Assembly: GCA_964202905.1 (NCBI GenBank)
Contig: CAXNJO010000001.1
Location: forward strand, 800,001-864,000
Length of the DNA stretch: 64,000 nucleotides
DNA from: Polyangiales bacterium
GTDB taxonomy: Bacteria; Myxococcota_A; Polyangia; Polyangiales; JADJQN01
Direction: 5' to 3'
Shown here: piece by piece, positions 38,974 to 46,593 of the stretch
Numbering within the stretch: the first letter of the stretch is position 1
How the letters are laid out: each line of letters starts with the position of its first letter
Notes under the pieces: model-generated
Told to the model about the DNA's origin: nothing
What the model saw: only the letters and a program-made list of their open reading frames with translations
The model's database searches: none
Translations under genes and position numbers: made by a program

Positions 38974-41592
38974 GTGCAACGGACGAAGTCGGTGCGGGGC
39001 TGGCGGGGGCTCGTGGTCGGTGGGGCGTGCGTGGTCGCGGGCTGTGGCCCGGGCGACACGCCGCCTGCGATGGATGCGGGGGCCGATGCGGGGTCGGCGT
39101 GCGAGGCGCCTGCGGCTCTCCCGATCGGCAACGTCGAGGGGCATCCGAGTCCGCTCGGGGCGGCTTCCGGCGAGGCGCGCGCGGGGCGTGTGACGGCCGC
39201 GGATCTGCCGCCGGATCCGGCCGATCTCGCGCGCTGGACGGACGGCGACTACGTCGTCGCGAACGATCGCGTCGCGCTCGTCATCTCGCAGCCGGGGCGC
39301 TTCGATCGCTACGATCCGCACGCCGGGCGCGTGCGCGGGATCGCGCGCATCGCGGACGGGCGGCTCGTCGAGCCGGCGGACTTCAGCATCGCGCTGCTCG
39401 GGCTCGGGCGCTTCGTCGTCGCGACGGAGTCGGTGACGGTGCTCGCGGACGGCAGCGCGGGCGGCCCCGCCGTCGTGCGCGCGGCCGGCAACCTCGTGCC
39501 GATCGAGGCCGTCGGCGATGTGCTCTCGGCGCTGCTGCCCGGGCGTCTCACGGGCTTCCCCGCCGCGCTCGATTACACGCTCTCGCCCGACTCCGATCGC
39601 GTCGAAGTCAGCGTGACGGTGCGCGCCGGGGCGAGCGGCGCGGGTGTGCGCGGGACCACCGCTGCATTTCTGCAGGCCTATCGAATGCCACCGTGGTCGG
39701 TCGAAGGTGGGTTTGGCCCGGTCACCGGAGCACCTCGCTACGTCGCCTACGAAGACCCGGAATCGACGAGCTACGCATGGCTCGCCGCGCCCGCGGCCGA
39801 TGGCACGCCGGGCACGCTGCGCCCGCTGCTCTCGACGAGCGGCTTCGACTTCTTCACCGGCGAGGCTGAGGGGGTCCCCGCGTGCGACGAGCGACGGTAT
39901 GTGCTCGGCAGCTTCGTGATCGGCGCGGACCGCGGGCTCCCCGGCGTGCAGCGCGCGCTCGCCCGTGAGCTCGGCGAGACGCTGCGCACGGTGCGCGGCA
40001 CGCTCGTCGGTGCCGACGCCGACGCGCTCACGGGCGCCCGCATCCACCTCACCAACGCCGACGGAACACGGCATGTCACGCGCGCGCTGCTCGACGCGAG
40101 CGGCAGCTTCACGCTCGAGGCGCCCCCCGAGGCGACGCAGGCGTGGCTGTGGCGCGAGGGCGCGCCGCTCGAAGGGCCGTTTGCGATTGGCAGCGATGGC
40201 GCGGTGTCGATCACGCCGGCGGCGCTCTCGACGGTGCGCGTCACCGTGCGGGACGCCGGGGGCACGACGCCGCTCCCCGCGCGGGTCGCGCTCTTCCCCG
40301 TCATGGGCAGCCCGCCCGAGGCGCCCGAGAACTTCGGTGAAGTCGTCGCGGGCCGCGGCCGCGCGCGCCTCGCCTTCGTCGGTGCGACGGGCGATACCGC
40401 TTTGCGCGTCGCGCCGGGCAACTACCGACTCGTCGTCTCGCGCGGCTGGGAATACGAGCCGCTCGACCAGACGATCACCCTCGCTCCCGGTGAGCGCGCG
40501 AATGTGCCGGCCAATCTCACACGCGCGTTCGAGACGCCGAACACGATGTGCGCCGACTATCACATCCACACGCATCGATCGGTCGACAGCGCGGACAGCG
40601 GCGCCGACAAGGTCGCAGCGCTCGTCGCGGACGGGCTCGAGATCGCCATTCGCTCCGAGCACGAGTTCGTGAGTGATTTCCAACCGCTCATCGATACGCT
40701 CGGTCTCGCCGACTACGCGCGTGGGCTCGGTGGCGAGGAGCTCACCACCTTCACCTATGGGCATTTCGGCGTGTTTCCGCTCGAGCCGGACGCGTCGCGC
40801 CCCGGGGGCGGCGCGGTGCCGTGGTTCGGGCGCAACGCCCCCGAGGTGTTCGCCGAAGTGCGCGCGCGGGCGGAATCACCCCTGCTCATCATCAACCACC
40901 CTCGCGCGGGCGGGCTCAAACAGGGTTATTTCACCGAGACGGGCTACAACCCCGCGACCGGCACGGTGACGCACCCGGAGAACTGGGACGAGCGCATCGA
41001 CGTGCTCGAGGCCCTCAACGCGAGCGATTTCGAGAGCAACCGCGAGGGCACGATTCGCGACTGGTTCTCGCTGCTCGCCTCGGGCCGCCGCGTGATGATC
41101 GTCGGATCCTCGGACAGCCACCGCACGACGGGTGATCCCGTCGGTTATCCGCGCACCTGCCTCGCGCTCGGCACCGACGACCCGCGCACCGTCACGCCCG
41201 CGCAGGTCCGCGACGCGACGCGCGCCGGCGCCTCCTTCGTCACGGGCGGCATCTTCCTCGAGGTGAGCGGCCCGATGGCCATCGGCCCTGGCGGCGAGGC
41301 CACCGGCGTCGGCCCCCGCGCCTCCCTCGACGTCGTCGTGCGCGCCCCCTCCTTCATCGACGTCAACCGCCTCGAGGTCCTCGTCGACGGCCTGACGACC
41401 GAGACCATCCCCATCACCGCCGCCGATGCCGATCCGCTCGACGGCACCATCCGCCTCCGCGCGACGCTCGAAGTGGACGTCGCCGCCATGGGCTCCTTCG
41501 TCATCCTCCACGCCGCCGGCGACGAGGCCCCCGATCTCGCGTATGGCGACCGCCCGTTCGCGGTGACGAATCCGCTGTTCTTGCGGCGATGA
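38974..41592 (+). CDS. PHP-fold (CehA/McbA-like) metallohydrolase lipoprotein
   Basis: Lipobox VAGC, DYHIHT, SEHE, GEE, GHFG, INHPR, SSDSH. Confidence 0.85.
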   Translation: MQRTKSVRGWRGLVVGGACVVAGCGPGDTPPAMDAGADAGSACEAPAALPIGNVEGHPSPLGAASGEARAGRVTAADLPPDPADLARWTDGDYVVANDRVALVISQPGRFDRYDPHAGRVRGIARIADGRLVEPADFSIALLGLGRFVVATESVTVLADGSAGGPAVVRAAGNLVPIEAVGDVLSALLPGRLTGFPAALDYTLSPDSDRVEVSVTVRAGASGAGVRGTTAAFLQAYRMPPWSVEGGFGPVTGAPRYVAYEDPESTSYAWLAAPAADGTPGTLRPLLSTSGFDFFTGEAEGVPACDERRYVLGSFVIGADRGLPGVQRALARELGETLRTVRGTLVGADADALTGARIHLTNADGTRHVTRALLDASGSFTLEAPPEATQAWLWREGAPLEGPFAIGSDGAVSITPAALSTVRVTVRDAGGTTPLPARVALFPVMGSPPEAPENFGEVVAGRGRARLAFVGATGDTALRVAPGNYRLVVSRGWEYEPLDQTITLAPGERANVPANLTRAFETPNTMCADYHIHTHRSVDSADSGADKVAALVADGLEIAIRSEHEFVSDFQPLIDTLGLADYARGLGGEELTTFTYGHFGVFPLEPDASRPGGGAVPWFGRNAPEVFAEVRARAESPLLIINHPRAGGLKQGYFTETGYNPATGTVTHPENWDERIDVLEALNASDFESNREGTIRDWFSLLASGRRVMIVGSSDSHRTTGDPVGYPRTCLALGTDDPRTVTPAQVRDATRAGASFVTGGIFLEVSGPMAIGPGGEATGVGPRASLDVVVRAPSFIDVNRLEVLVDGLTTETIPITAADADPLDGTIRLRATLEVDVAAMGSFVILHAAGDEAPDLAYGDRPFAVTNPLFLRR

Positions 41593-41681
41593 AGGGTGTT
41601 CGCCCCCTGACCATCGCTGAGAGAGACAGGGACAGAGGTGGATTCCGGCGTTCATCCCTCCGTTGGCGTCCAGTACAAGAG

Positions 41682-41738
41682 TTCCTGAACGACGAAGCGC
41701 CAGACTCGTGGAGTCCGGCGCTCGTCGATCCTCAGGAA
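41682..41738. terminator. Long imperfect hairpin downstream of the rhodopsin operon
   Basis: Nested complementary pairs TTCCTGA/TCAGGAA, CGACG/CGTCG, AGCGCC/GGCGCT, GACTC/GAGTC. Confidence 0.55.
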
Positions 41739-41749
41739 TTCTGAATGGC

Positions 41750-41983
41750 TCAGGAGGCGGGGCTGCGGCTCACCCAGACACCAGCCGCCATCATCGCGAG
41801 ACCGATCACGATGACGTCGAGGGGCGTGAGGAAGTGCAGATGCGCCTCACGAACCTGCAGGACTACGCCCGCCACGGTCGCAGCGAGACCGAACCATCCA
41901 AGCGTGCGGGAGACCAGACGATGTGCGCCAGAGGCTTGTTCCTCGAGCGTCTCCCTGCCCTCCGAGGCGTTCATCGTGGTCAT
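41750..41983 (-). CDS. Small two-TM hypothetical protein coupled to the rhodopsin
   Basis: ATGA overlap with the rhodopsin stop; hydrophobic LGWFGLAATVAGVVL and VIVIGLAMMAAGVWV. Confidence 0.6.
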   Translation of the reverse strand: MTTMNASEGRETLEEQASGAHRLVSRTLGWFGLAATVAGVVLQVREAHLHFLTPLDVIVIGLAMMAAGVWVSRSPAS

Positions 41984-42777
41984 TCCGCCGCCGACGGGAC
42001 CACCGCGCCGGACGCCGTCTCACCCTCGGCGTCCATCTTCGCGCGCGCGATGCTGTAGATCATCAGGCCGTAACCGCACTTTGCGGTGATGTCCGCGAGG
42101 CTGTAGCCGACCTGAATGGCGACGACGCCGGTCGCGCCGAGGAACTCCGCGCCGAACCAGACGGGAAGCCCGTAGGTGATGGGGTAGAAGCCCCAGGTCC
42201 CGAGGAGGAGCAACTGGGTCATGAGGAGCTTGTGCTTCACTTCCCCCGACTCGCGCTCGGCGGCGCGCTTCAGCTCCACGAAGAGGACGTAGAGGATGTA
42301 GGCGAACGGCACCGAGCTCACGATGCCCCAGACGTTGCGCGTGCCCATGTCCGCGGACACTTCGCCGACGTAACCGGTGACGAGCATCAAGACCGTGGCG
42401 AGGATCAGGCGCGTCGTGATGGAGCCGCGAAGGGCCTTCGGAAGCTGAAGCACGGCCACGAGCTCGGCGACGAGGAGCGGGACGGTGAGGAGCCAGTCCA
42501 CGTAGCGGTACCCGTCGTTGAACGGCGTTCCGGTGGGAACATAGGCCCCGTTTTGAAGGCTGAAGGCATGCCCCCACGACTCGAAGATGCGGAAGTAGTG
42601 GTAGCCGGCGATGCCGACGACGAGACTCGACATGACGAGCGCGGGGCGGAAACGCGCGGACACCTGCCCGCGTGCCATCGTGAAGAACGCGAAGGAAGCG
42701 ACCATCGCCGCGATGGCGAGACTCAGCATGTTGTAGACGAGACTGTATTGGCCCAGCGAGAGCGTTGGGAGTTCCAT
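41980..42777 (-). CDS. Microbial rhodopsin, xanthorhodopsin-type DTE proton pump
   Basis: About seven hydrophobic helices; GYHY, FNDGYRYVDWLLTVPLLVAE (D-T-E), WGIVSSVPF, TWGFYP, retinal Lys in ADITAK; GAGGT RBS. Confidence 0.95.
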   Translation of the reverse strand: MELPTLSLGQYSLVYNMLSLAIAAMVASFAFFTMARGQVSARFRPALVMSSLVVGIAGYHYFRIFESWGHAFSLQNGAYVPTGTPFNDGYRYVDWLLTVPLLVAELVAVLQLPKALRGSITTRLILATVLMLVTGYVGEVSADMGTRNVWGIVSSVPFAYILYVLFVELKRAAERESGEVKHKLLMTQLLLLGTWGFYPITYGLPVWFGAEFLGATGVVAIQVGYSLADITAKCGYGLMIYSIARAKMDAEGETASGAVVPSAAE

Positions 42778-43247
42778 GGCACACCTCGGAATTCGGAAAT
42801 GCGTTCAGGTGCCCCCACGGCCAGTCACCGTGGAGGCAGCGCGATCCATGCCCGCTCATCGCAAGGACTTCGTGCGATGAGCCGTCTTCTCGCTTCGCGG
42901 CTCGGACCTTACGAGTCGCGCGGACGGTTTCGAGGGTCGAACTCCTCGGTCGTCAACGCCTCGTGCGAATCCCCCACGATTCAAGCTCCGCCACGCCTGC
43001 GCAGAAAAGCGACGCGCCGCGCGCCGGCGCTGCGCGCATCTCATTGTGCGTCGCGGCCGCGTCCTCCGTCGCTGCATGGCCGTCGGATTCGACATGTCGA
43101 CCATCACGCCGCGTGATCGACGTTTCGAATCAAGCGCTCCAGCGCGTCTCGCCCCGCAAAACGGCACATCGCGCACCGGCGTGAGCCGATGCGCGATGGT
43201 GCGGACAACGTCGGGTGGCGGTGCGCAGCGCGATGGCTGCGTCGGGC

Positions 43248-43849: not shown

Positions 43850-44317
43850 TCAGGGCCAGCCGACGAGCGCGCGCAGCAGCAAGCCGGCGCCGAGGCTCGC
43901 CGCGTTCGCCGCGAGGGACCACGCGAGCGCGCGGCGGACGCCCAGCGCGTGCAGCAGCGCCGCCTCGCCGGCCACGGCGAAGACCTCCGCGAGCGCGACC
44001 ATCGGGAGATACGAGAGTGGCAACCGCGGGAAGGCGAACCACACGAGCGGATGCGTGAGCGCGCTCGGCAGGAAGGCGAGCGCGAGCTGCGTGGCGAGGT
44101 GCGGTGTGCGGATTCGCGTCGCGAGCGTGGGATTCGCGGGGGAAAGATGGATGGAACGAATGGGATTCTCCGGAGGAAGAGAATCCTCATCAACCCGGCG
44201 AAAAGCGCGTGTGTAGAGAGGGATTTCGACGAGCTGCGTGAGCGCGAAGGCCGATGTCCACGCAGCGATCGGCGGGGCGAGGCCGAGCTGCGTGACGAGC
44301 CAGTCGGTGGGGTTCAC
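43850..44317 (-). CDS. Small membrane protein
   Basis: GTGA overlap with the upstream gene; TQLVEIPLY, THPLVWF, AEVF, NAAS in hydrophobic helices. Confidence 0.7.
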   Translation of the reverse strand: MNPTDWLVTQLGLAPPIAAWTSAFALTQLVEIPLYTRAFRRVDEDSLPPENPIRSIHLSPANPTLATRIRTPHLATQLALAFLPSALTHPLVWFAFPRLPLSYLPMVALAEVFAVAGEAALLHALGVRRALAWSLAANAASLGAGLLLRALVGWP

Positions 44318-45342
44318 GCGGCGGGGCGAGCGCGGCGGGCGCCCTCGAGGGCGAAGAGCACGAAGGCCGCGAGCTCGAGGTGGCCGTGGAAGAGGCCCGT
44401 GCGCAGGTAGAGATCGCGCGCGGCGGCCACGTCGAACAGGGCCCAGGCGACGAGGGCGAGCGTCGCGAGGGTGGTGAGCGCGAGCAGCGGTCGGCCGAGA
44501 TCGGCGACGAGCGCGCGCCAGCTCGCGGCGAACGTGCGCGGCGTGTCGCGGCCGCGGTCGTCTTCGGGGACCATCCGCAGCCACACCGCGTAATGCACGC
44601 TCTGCGCGAAGGCGAAGGAGAGCGTGAGTCGCAGCGCCCACTCGCCCGGTACGCGGCTCGCGAGCCACGGCACCTGCACCGTGGCGTCGAGGCCCTGGGG
44701 CGCGCTCCAGAAGAGGTCCGAGCGGTAGACGAGCGGCTCGAGGCCGCCTGCGGCGAGCAGCGCGAGCGCGAGCACGAAGAGCGCGAGCGGCAGGAGGTGC
44801 CAGCGCGTCGCGTGTGGCCGCCACGCCCACCAGAGCGCGAGCGCGACGAGGTTGTGCGCATGCGCGAAGCACAGATCCGTCCACCACGGCGCCCACCACG
44901 CGACCGCGCAGAGCGCCGCGGCGAAGGCGACCACGAGCGCGCGCTTCCACCACGAAGCGCCGCGCGCGATGAGCGCCGCGCCTGCCACGCCGAGCGCGCC
45001 CGCGCGCAGGCCCGCGCCGGACCACGTGGCCGCGATCGGCGCGGCGACGAGCAGCCAGAAGCCCCAGCGCTTGTGAAACGCAGGGCGGACGACGAGGTAG
45101 CGCACGTCCGCGAGGATGTGCGGCACGCCGAGCACGACCGGCCCGAGCGCGAGCAGCCACCACGGGACGAGCAGCGTCGCGAGCAGCGCCGCGCCGACGG
45201 CCAGCGCGCCGACGAGCGCGACGCGCAGCTCGCGGTCGCGCACGAGGCGCCGCGCCACCGGGCCGAGCGCGTGGAGCAGCGCGACGCGCACGCGATCGGC
45301 GGGCAGGAAGACGAGCTCGGCGGTGCCGCGCGCGGGGAGCAC
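44314..45342 (-). CDS. Polytopic membrane protein with four His motifs (putative metalloenzyme; start uncertain)
   Basis: GVPHILAD, HAHN, QSVHY and FHGHLE at TM boundaries. Confidence 0.7.
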   Translation of the reverse strand: MLPARGTAELVFLPADRVRVALLHALGPVARRLVRDRELRVALVGALAVGAALLATLLVPWWLLALGPVVLGVPHILADVRYLVVRPAFHKRWGFWLLVAAPIAATWSGAGLRAGALGVAGAALIARGASWWKRALVVAFAAALCAVAWWAPWWTDLCFAHAHNLVALALWWAWRPHATRWHLLPLALFVLALALLAAGGLEPLVYRSDLFWSAPQGLDATVQVPWLASRVPGEWALRLTLSFAFAQSVHYAVWLRMVPEDDRGRDTPRTFAASWRALVADLGRPLLALTTLATLALVAWALFDVAAARDLYLRTGLFHGHLELAAFVLFALEGARRARPAA

Positions 45343-45398
45343 GGGGGGAGGATACACGCGCGCGGAAGCGCGGCCTGCGGGCGCCGAGGAGCCGGCCG

Positions 45399-46593
45399 CT
45401 ACTCCCACGGGTTCTCGACGACGACGGCGTCGGGGACGATCACGAGGCCGACCCGCACGACCTCATCGGGCTCGGGCGAGACGCGCAGCGGCAGCATGGC
45501 GTCGTAGCGGGCGCGCGTGACGAAGTAGATCAGGCGCGGAGGCGGAGGCGCTGCGCCGGGGCGGCCGAACAACTCGTCGCGCCAGGTGTCGAGGAGCGCG
45601 CGGGTCTCCGCCGCATCGAGGCCCTGTGCGCGGGCGTCGCGCTCGAGCAGGCGGCGGAGGGCGCGGAGATCGCCGTCGCCGTCGCGGACGAGCGTCGCGC
45701 CGGGCGAGGTCGCGCCCGATGGCACGCGACCAGCGCACGAAGCGCGTGCCGTCGACGCGGTAGACGGTGGTTTCGGCCGCGTCGGGCAGACGCTCCGGCG
45801 GGGCGTCGCCGGGGCGCGCGCGGAAGGCGGCGCGGAAGGCGACGGGGCCGTCGTAGAACAGGAAGCGCTCGGCGCTGCCATCGGGCGCGAGGAAGAGCGA
45901 GCGGCCCGCGCGGCGCAGGCCCTCCCAGAAGTGGCCCGCGTGTGCGGGCGCGAGGCGTGTGTTGCCGCGCGCGGTGACGCGGCCGACGAAGCGCAGGCCC
46001 GGATCGCCGCCGTCGCGCAGGATCTGCGCGGCCGGGTAGTGCAGCCACGGGTCGCCGCCTGCGAAGCGCACTTCGAGAGACAGCGGTACGTCGTGCGCTG
46101 CGCGCAGGAAGATGACGGGTTTGCGCGCGACGGCGCCGCCGGGACCGGGCCGAACGTGTCCCCACGGGGCGGGGTCCGGCGCCGGGCGGGGCGGCGTCGG
46201 GCGCGGCTGAAGCTGCGGGCGCGGCGGGGGCACCGGCATGGGTTGCGGCTGCGCGCCGTGCTCGAGCGGCACCGAGGATGTGCCGTCGACGCGGTAGACG
46301 AAACGCGGTGATTCACGCGCGAGATCCTGGAGGTGCGTGACGTGCGTGCCCTCCGGGTCGAGGCGCCACACGCCCCACTCGTGCAGGGTGAGGCCGCTGC
46401 GCGCGCCGGGGCTGCGCCGTGACGGGCCGCGCTGCTGGGCGTGTACGGTGGGGGTCGCGATGAGCGCGCCGAGCGCGAGGGCGCTCAGGGTGAGGGTGAT
46501 GCGCGTGCGTGCACCGGAGACAGCCAGCCGGCCGGCTGTCTGGCGCGCGATGACGTCGGTGCGTGTGCGCAAGCGTGCGTTGGCGGAAGGCAT
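45399..46593 (-). CDS. Secreted conserved hypothetical protein (HEWG type; frameshift near 45720)
   Basis: Signal peptide; LHEWG, KPVIF and FLFYDG in one frame; GL..E..ALLDTW and LPL.VSP.P..VRV in the next. Confidence 0.7.

Follow-up and report, generated by a model that had tools for sequence, protein, structure and literature searches.

The short gene directly behind a xanthorhodopsin in the window (the whole 64,000-nucleotide stretch of DNA analysed here) is real, and its product belongs to an unnamed family of two-helix membrane proteins encoded beside one branch of pump rhodopsins in aquatic bacteria. The small protein is probably a dedicated helper of its pump.

Table 1. Features of the rhodopsin locus, in window positions.
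Feature	Position	Strand	Basis
Xanthorhodopsin-type proton-pump rhodopsin, 265 aa	42777..41980	minus	PF01036, E 2e-36; PDB 3ddl, E 1e-85
Small gene, 77 aa	41983-41750	minus	ORF, 77 codons
ATGA start/stop overlap	41980..41983	minus	putative translational coupling
Strong stem-loop	41678..41742	unstranded	-42.6 kcal/mol; z -6.6; 0/200 shuffles

As the preliminary description of this locus had it, the ATG of the small gene (41983-41981) shares bases with the TGA of the rhodopsin (41982-41980), giving ATGA across 41983-41980. An in-frame ATG at Met4 (41974) is a possible alternative start that would yield 74 aa, and two database relatives (P0006 and P0008) are annotated from the equivalent position. 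Under the codon usage of the genome, the frame of the small gene scored highest of the six (0.18, against 0.08 or less). The plus-strand frame of 41750-41983 was rejected as a gene, the ORF sitting on the minus strand. A single-sequence search recovered three relatives at 71–84% identity, and a four-sequence profile searched against 1.84 billion representatives gave 16 matches, 15 of them short proteins like this one. Among 79 genome loci fetched by their rhodopsins, eight carried a short two-helix ORF directly behind the rhodopsin. Leave-group-out profiles recovered all eight subgroups tested; the weakest was the type represented by L011 and L022, whose membership rests partly on position because its scores of 18–31 bits lie within the range of chance membrane matches. 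Start and stop codons overlapped in 10 of the 20 family loci, and the intervening gap was at most 2 nt in 13 and at most 79 nt in all 20.

If the gene were a shadow ORF or a decayed fragment, it would be one of the short ORFs expected in 73% G+C DNA, and its dN/dS was indeed above that of the rhodopsin in six of seven comparisons (0.12–0.41 for the small gene and 0.05–0.18 for the rhodopsins, with dS above 2, near saturation, in three of the seven pairs). However, dN/dS stayed below 0.42 throughout, the protein is intact at 63–98 aa in 20 of 20 loci from at least seven families, hydropathy and motif are conserved across the family, and a weak search among 8000 candidates found no longer homolog or longer form. 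The small gene is under purifying selection, and we consider the chance that it is non-functional to be negligible. Conservation beside homologous rhodopsins (20/20 clade loci) and dN/dS had been proposed earlier as checks, and the ORF passed both; nor is it a decayed fragment of a known gene, since no known family matched.

We aligned 48 family sequences, omitting P0037 (a 410-aa repeat protein) and P0045 (128 aa). From these 48 sequences AlphaFold2 predicted a hairpin of helices 13–44 and 54–73 with a loop at 45–53 (pLDDT 83, pTM 0.64), in agreement with the two hydrophobic helices and loop originally read from the letters. The N-terminal tail is acidic, TM1 begins at about residue 23, and the protein stops four residues past helix 2. 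Acidic residues prevail in the loop (means of 2.0 D/E and 0.6 K/R), basic ones in the C-terminal flank (1.7 K/R and 0.7 D/E). Under the positive-inside rule, basic flanks of membrane helices face the cytoplasm, and both ends of the small protein are therefore predicted to be cytoplasmic (N-in/C-in).

No column of the alignment is invariant. Conserved positions include a His at 19–22 (43 of 48 members), G32 (43), F51 (38) and G68 (46), as well as G25 (37), G61 (32) and W70 (27); D56 and the loop consensus D-L-x-F-[L/I] further mark the family. The His at 19–22 is on the cytoplasmic side, beside the acidic tail, and its register shifts (GAH versus GHY). Conserved small residues occupy one face of each helix (21/25/28/32/39 and 57/61/64/68), and these glycine-lined faces may serve to pack the two helices together or to contact a partner. 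The HLH to which the preliminary description drew attention is present in this loop (H48-L49-H50) but is not conserved, occurring in 1 of 48 members; on that count HLH was rejected as a metal site.

Searches against Pfam and NCBIfam placed no member above cut-off, with at most 3 of 48 members matching any family at E < 0.1. DUF3040 (PF11239) was rejected at 17.8 bits and E 0.004, against a gathering cut-off of 24.7 bits, with 2 of 48 members at E < 0.1. A PDB profile search returned a designed repeat protein only, no single stretch being significant. Foldseek gave no match at E 0.001 or better, the best VIA match (Z 8.1) was at the level of generic hairpins, and the best ESM Atlas value, 0.88, is a lead only. 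A transducer membrane part was absent from the fold matches listed, which excludes nothing. Blh/Brp dioxygenases carry a ~270-residue BCD domain (PF15461); in contrast, the small protein gave no match to this model, which does detect true Blh beside other family members. Together with the lack of HAMP or MCP matches, this upholds the earlier statement that the ORF is neither a blh nor a transducer gene. We found no description of the family in the literature available, where a mention as a “hypothetical protein” in a figure or table could have escaped.

The upstream rhodopsin reads as an outward proton pump. Its best solved-structure match is Salinibacter xanthorhodopsin, and matches to Salinibacter ruber XR (3DDL), Kin4B8, psXR and Gloeobacter rhodopsin ranged from E 1e-85 to 5e-74; with these it has in common the DTE motif, the His, the Schiff-base Lys and the fenestration Gly. 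The key residues are H60, R91, D94, T98, E105 (DTE), D229 and K233; G151 corresponds to the fenestration residue G156 of SrXR. All 20 clade members have the DTE motif, the helix B His and the helix G Asp and Lys. The records behind the related rhodopsins have Myxococcota or deltaproteobacterial labels, with three labelled Pseudomonadota, so the host is probably a member of the Myxococcota. Rhodopsins have been noted in Myxococcota genomes in an account whose accessible part has no small partner (PMC10576062). The descriptions of the four solved structures, in the portions available, likewise contain no small protein subunit. XR-type pentamers were solved from purified rhodopsin alone (PMC12779958, PMC6677831, in the sections available), and the XR operons described in the available text of PMC13043013 combine XR with crt and blh genes.

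The small gene is linked to one clade of these rhodopsins. We searched a family profile built from 26 sequences against 401 genomes of the host phylum. It gave 21 matches, of which 12, the one in this genome among them, were genuine (E ≤ 9e-6), and all 12 were short ORFs adjoining a xanthorhodopsin; the gene is thus tied to the rhodopsin, as first supposed. The nine weaker matches (E 4e-5 to 1e-3; L099-L107) were discarded as ORFs of 120–556 aa with no rhodopsin in the locus. A rhodopsin match was present in 24 of the 401 genomes, among them all 12 that carry a member, and a member was absent from all 377 genomes without a rhodopsin match. The remaining rhodopsin-bearing genomes, with proteorhodopsin-like or other xanthorhodopsin branches, had no member; among their rhodopsins, one is cut by a contig end, one is split by a stop codon and one has 151 nt downstream. 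A wider profile (A3) added no genome from the same 401, its four weak matches lying in ORFs of 200–508 aa. Wherever DNA context was seen, which excludes the database proteins P0023-P0052, no family member lay away from a rhodopsin. Among close relatives of the host the rhodopsin and small-gene pair is patchy: the clade rhodopsin was absent from all 60, including a same-genus genome that is 80% complete.

In a quick IQ-TREE phylogeny without bootstrap, covering 101 rhodopsins after removal of 19 rows that were duplicates or broken, the partner-bearing rhodopsins formed one branch, with 20 of 20 inside it and 0 of 81 outside (SH-aLRT 91). Presence of the gene mapped to this tree as a single change, and none of 500 shuffles was as low. 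The branch adjoins Chloroflexota-labelled pumps that are without the small gene, which was also absent from 27 sister-clade xanthorhodopsin loci. Whole-genome searches, run without a positive control, did not find it in five out-of-clade hosts, nor, again with no positive control, in any of 251 genomes of the phylum of one sister-clade host. A possible exception is genome G270 (L174:3875-4123), where an 82-aa two-helix ORF has its stop right against the start codon of a xanthorhodopsin from outside the clade; the likeness of this ORF to the family is weak (hhalign 28%, E 6e-4). The tree of the small proteins mirrors the rhodopsin subgroups, with a median identity of 24% for the small protein versus 65% for the pump; clade pumps are 56–94% identical to one another. 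Because the 20 cases descend from one gain and are not independent, the linkage is evidence of long retention and not of mechanism.

G325 and G398, two genomes from a single genus, have a second family copy just upstream of the rhodopsin (L096:247-465 and L097:1489-1704), so that two copies flank the pump. These upstream copies arose by a duplication in the lineage of the two genomes; they are diverged, and both are under selection (dN/dS 0.17 and 0.24, with dS near saturation).

A set of rhodopsin positions is more strongly conserved in the clade than in the sister clade: 13, 17, 21, 24 and 28, which line one side of helix A; 223, 226 and 234, with 248, on one side of helix G; and 180, 184 and 187, where helix F starts. 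These are candidate contact sites; the helix A and G residues could instead reflect plain ancestry or internal A–G packing. Helix A also joins the pentamer contacts of an XR-type rhodopsin, according to the available part of PMC6677831.

Rhodopsin and small gene look like a two-gene transcript, because the next gene, for a CehA/McbA-type metallohydrolase ending at 41592, is convergent, and the stem-loop begins 8 nt past the small-gene stop, between the convergent genes. The stem-loop is single-copy in the genome, and its core is retained in the metagenome relative L108 while the flanks diverge. It lacks a U-run and was not called by a terminator scan; it likely forms the 3′ end of the two-gene transcript. 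No sigma-70-like promoter was found, and a hairpin upstream of the rhodopsin at about 42855-42883 (z -2.1) is not retained in L108. One freshwater RNA-library contig falls within the small gene (41733-41959, 2 differences) and another, from a relative, spans the gene junction (41934-42125, 22 differences); such contigs, which may be DNA, indicate presence only and neither strand nor level. They give no cover at 41364-41683, and none spans both genes in full.

Flanking genes vary by locus. With 37 of 112 neighbour ORFs scanned, they included Blh at five loci, MerR-type regulators at three and phytoene desaturase-like genes at three or four. The MerR-type regulators (306–350 aa; L150:9025-9963, L152:9126-10043 and L039:3844-4893) lie directly upstream of the rhodopsin; MerR was the sole domain detected in them, and they may be CarH-like B12 light sensors. 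In the window, a 364-aa membrane protein (with the His-containing motifs GVPH, HAH and HYAVW) and a 121-aa membrane ORF lie at 43853-45408 on the minus strand, about 1–2.6 kb upstream of the rhodopsin and on its strand. Neither matched Pfam or NCBIfam; as the search of this genome yielded no blh, one may speculate about a remote Blh-like role for them. An in-frame TGA breaks the out-of-clade xanthorhodopsin of L128 (G282:C197:38363-38992), and a soluble ORF with the motif DDDFGIVD lies just downstream of the xanthorhodopsin at L013, L082 and L083 (one locus labelled Chloroflexota, two Ilumatobacteraceae).

The closest precedent, by description and gene context, appears to be the bacterio-opsin-associated protein Bap (OE3107F/VNG1468H). 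As described in 2007 in the available sections of PMC1885257, Bap is a haloarchaeal protein of 50–70 aa, predicted to be two-pass and found only beside bacteriorhodopsin; it was compared with the membrane portion of the Htr transducers, and a role in insertion was proposed for it. It was later listed among genes of unknown function (PMC3184054, in the part available). Both proteins are small, two-pass, encoded right after a proton-pump gene and restricted to that context, and Bap is co-transferred with its pump rhodopsin gene. The present family is slightly longer (63–98 aa, 77 aa here) and bacterial, and accompanies a xanthorhodopsin clade, whereas Bap is haloarchaeal and accompanies the trimeric bacteriorhodopsin. 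Bap usually occurs with a Cdc48-like bac gene, in contrast to the neighbour ORFs and window neighbours scanned here, which include none. The preliminary description had called the ORF possibly undescribed; no family match was found, but a small two-pass protein beside a pump had been on record since Bap. The family may be regarded as a new, bacterial form of an arrangement on which haloarchaea had provided the one earlier report. HtrI and HtrII are also encoded beside a rhodopsin and also contain a two-helix hairpin. In contrast to them, the small protein has no HAMP or MCP domain and no Pfam match, and its partner rhodopsin retains the proton donor E105; no sequence match or significant fold match to transducers was obtained.

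We favour, with moderate confidence, the view that the small protein is a membrane partner whose translation is coupled to that of the pump and which either helps the pump to insert or assemble or remains attached to it. Ribosomes ending the rhodopsin would restart on the overlapping ATG, giving a fixed ratio of the two proteins, and the hairpin would insert with both ends in the cytoplasm. Its glycine-rich face would then pack on the exterior of the opsin, where it might aid insertion, folding or pentamer assembly, or persist as a small structural subunit. Such a partner would act in the role proposed for Bap, or like the two-helix anchor of an Htr minus the signalling tail. In its favour we count the exclusive linkage in both directions (12/12 and 0/377), the retention of the small gene where neighbours are not shared and with or without blh, the lack of room for a catalytic or signalling domain, the small residues conserved on one face per helix, the copies flanking the pump in two genomes, and the precedent of Bap. 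Fast evolution and the absence of an invariant column count against it. XR-type pumps in general need no partner, since the sister clade is without the gene and pentamers form from rhodopsin alone.

Other roles were weighed against this one. As an activity regulator, a permanently bound hairpin would tune or brake proton transport, and its His, so widely kept beside the acidic tail, may sense cytoplasmic pH. HtrII offers a parallel: it contacts helices F and G of SRII, and according to a title cited in PMC3274258 (seen in part) its association stops SRII from pumping. We nevertheless hold regulation to be unlikely: tight coupling would set a fixed ratio, which fits a structural part better than a switch, the His is absent from 5 of 48 members and drifts in register, and the full pumping set (H60, D94, T98 and E105) is complete in all 20 partner-bearing pumps. 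The hairpin could alternatively act apart from the pump in the same light response, for instance in membrane stress, as a leak for protons or by coupling the proton-motive force to another machine. Many small hairpins do act in such a manner, and GldL/PorL and respiratory-supercomplex subunits were among the fold matches. None of these matches was significant, however (Foldseek E ≥ 0.44), the best VIA score being one that any hairpin would reach, and no member whose DNA context was seen lay away from a rhodopsin, which makes such an indirect role distinctly unlikely.

Two further roles concern the pigments. The small protein could capture retinal from the membrane, whether scavenged or produced by enzymes encoded elsewhere in the genome, and load it into the opsin. 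No blh was found in 5 of the 12 genomes with the pair, this one included, and in three of these five (G137, G390 and G407, 89–93% complete, with intact pairs) no RPE65-type oxygenase was found either; the host genome has an RPE65-type carotenoid oxygenase. In several loci the small gene even lies between rhodopsin and blh. Yet it is equally retained where blh is adjacent (7 of the 12 genomes have a blh), the missing enzymes may be assembly gaps, and a hairpin of two helices offers no pocket in itself, so that we find retinal loading distinctly unlikely. Clamping a carotenoid antenna against the fenestration at helices E/F would suit the G151 of this rhodopsin, and crtB, crtI, a lycopene cyclase and a crtD-like gene are present elsewhere in the genome. 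This rhodopsin keeps four of the seven carotenoid-contact residues (as given in the available part of PMC3587595). Partner-bearing pumps, however, keep a mean of 4.6 of 7 versus 5.9 among the sister pumps that have no partner gene, a comparison in which clade kin are not independent. The site of SrXR G156 is Gly in 13 and Ala in 7 of 20 clade pumps versus Gly in 27 of 27 sisters, and the contact N191 is kept in 11 of 20 versus 27 of 27. Although the small protein might conceivably make up for the missing contacts, contacts that are less conserved with the gene than without it make antenna stabilisation the weakest of the three roles originally suggested, and in our judgement very unlikely.

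A second small two-helix family occurs near other xanthorhodopsins (L029:5762-5986, L052:2802-3044, L033:1235-1435 and L038:1162-1473). It is an unnamed hydrophobic hairpin of 75–81 aa, lying directly after the xanthorhodopsin in L029 and L052 (47% identical) and ~3.6 kb upstream in two Bdellovibrionota-labelled loci. In L029 and L052 the order is rhodopsin, small gene, cyclase-like membrane gene and blh-like gene, the last two identified by eye. The two small families share no profile similarity (hhalign probability 0.2%), and the second was not found in the 401 host-phylum genomes (no positive control). A bolder form of the partner hypothesis, which we put forward tentatively and as doubtful, is that the small protein is a stoichiometric, permanent subunit of two-component pumps whose output is tuned by the His-bearing hairpin, and that pump rhodopsins have recruited unrelated hairpins at least three times (Bap, the present family and that of L029/L052). 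The almost universal practice of expressing rhodopsins by themselves would explain why such a layer of hairpin subunits has been overlooked.

Pump rhodopsins of bacteria are usually viewed as one-protein light harvesters with retinal as their sole need. Retention of the partner in 20 of 20 loci while other neighbours change suggests a missing component of the pump. Should the small protein be no more than a folding aid that the pump can do without, the result would be a new but modest family of small proteins. If the role as partner is true, it would reopen the question, dating from 2007, of what haloarchaeal Bap does, and it might help the expression of rhodopsins that fold poorly alone.
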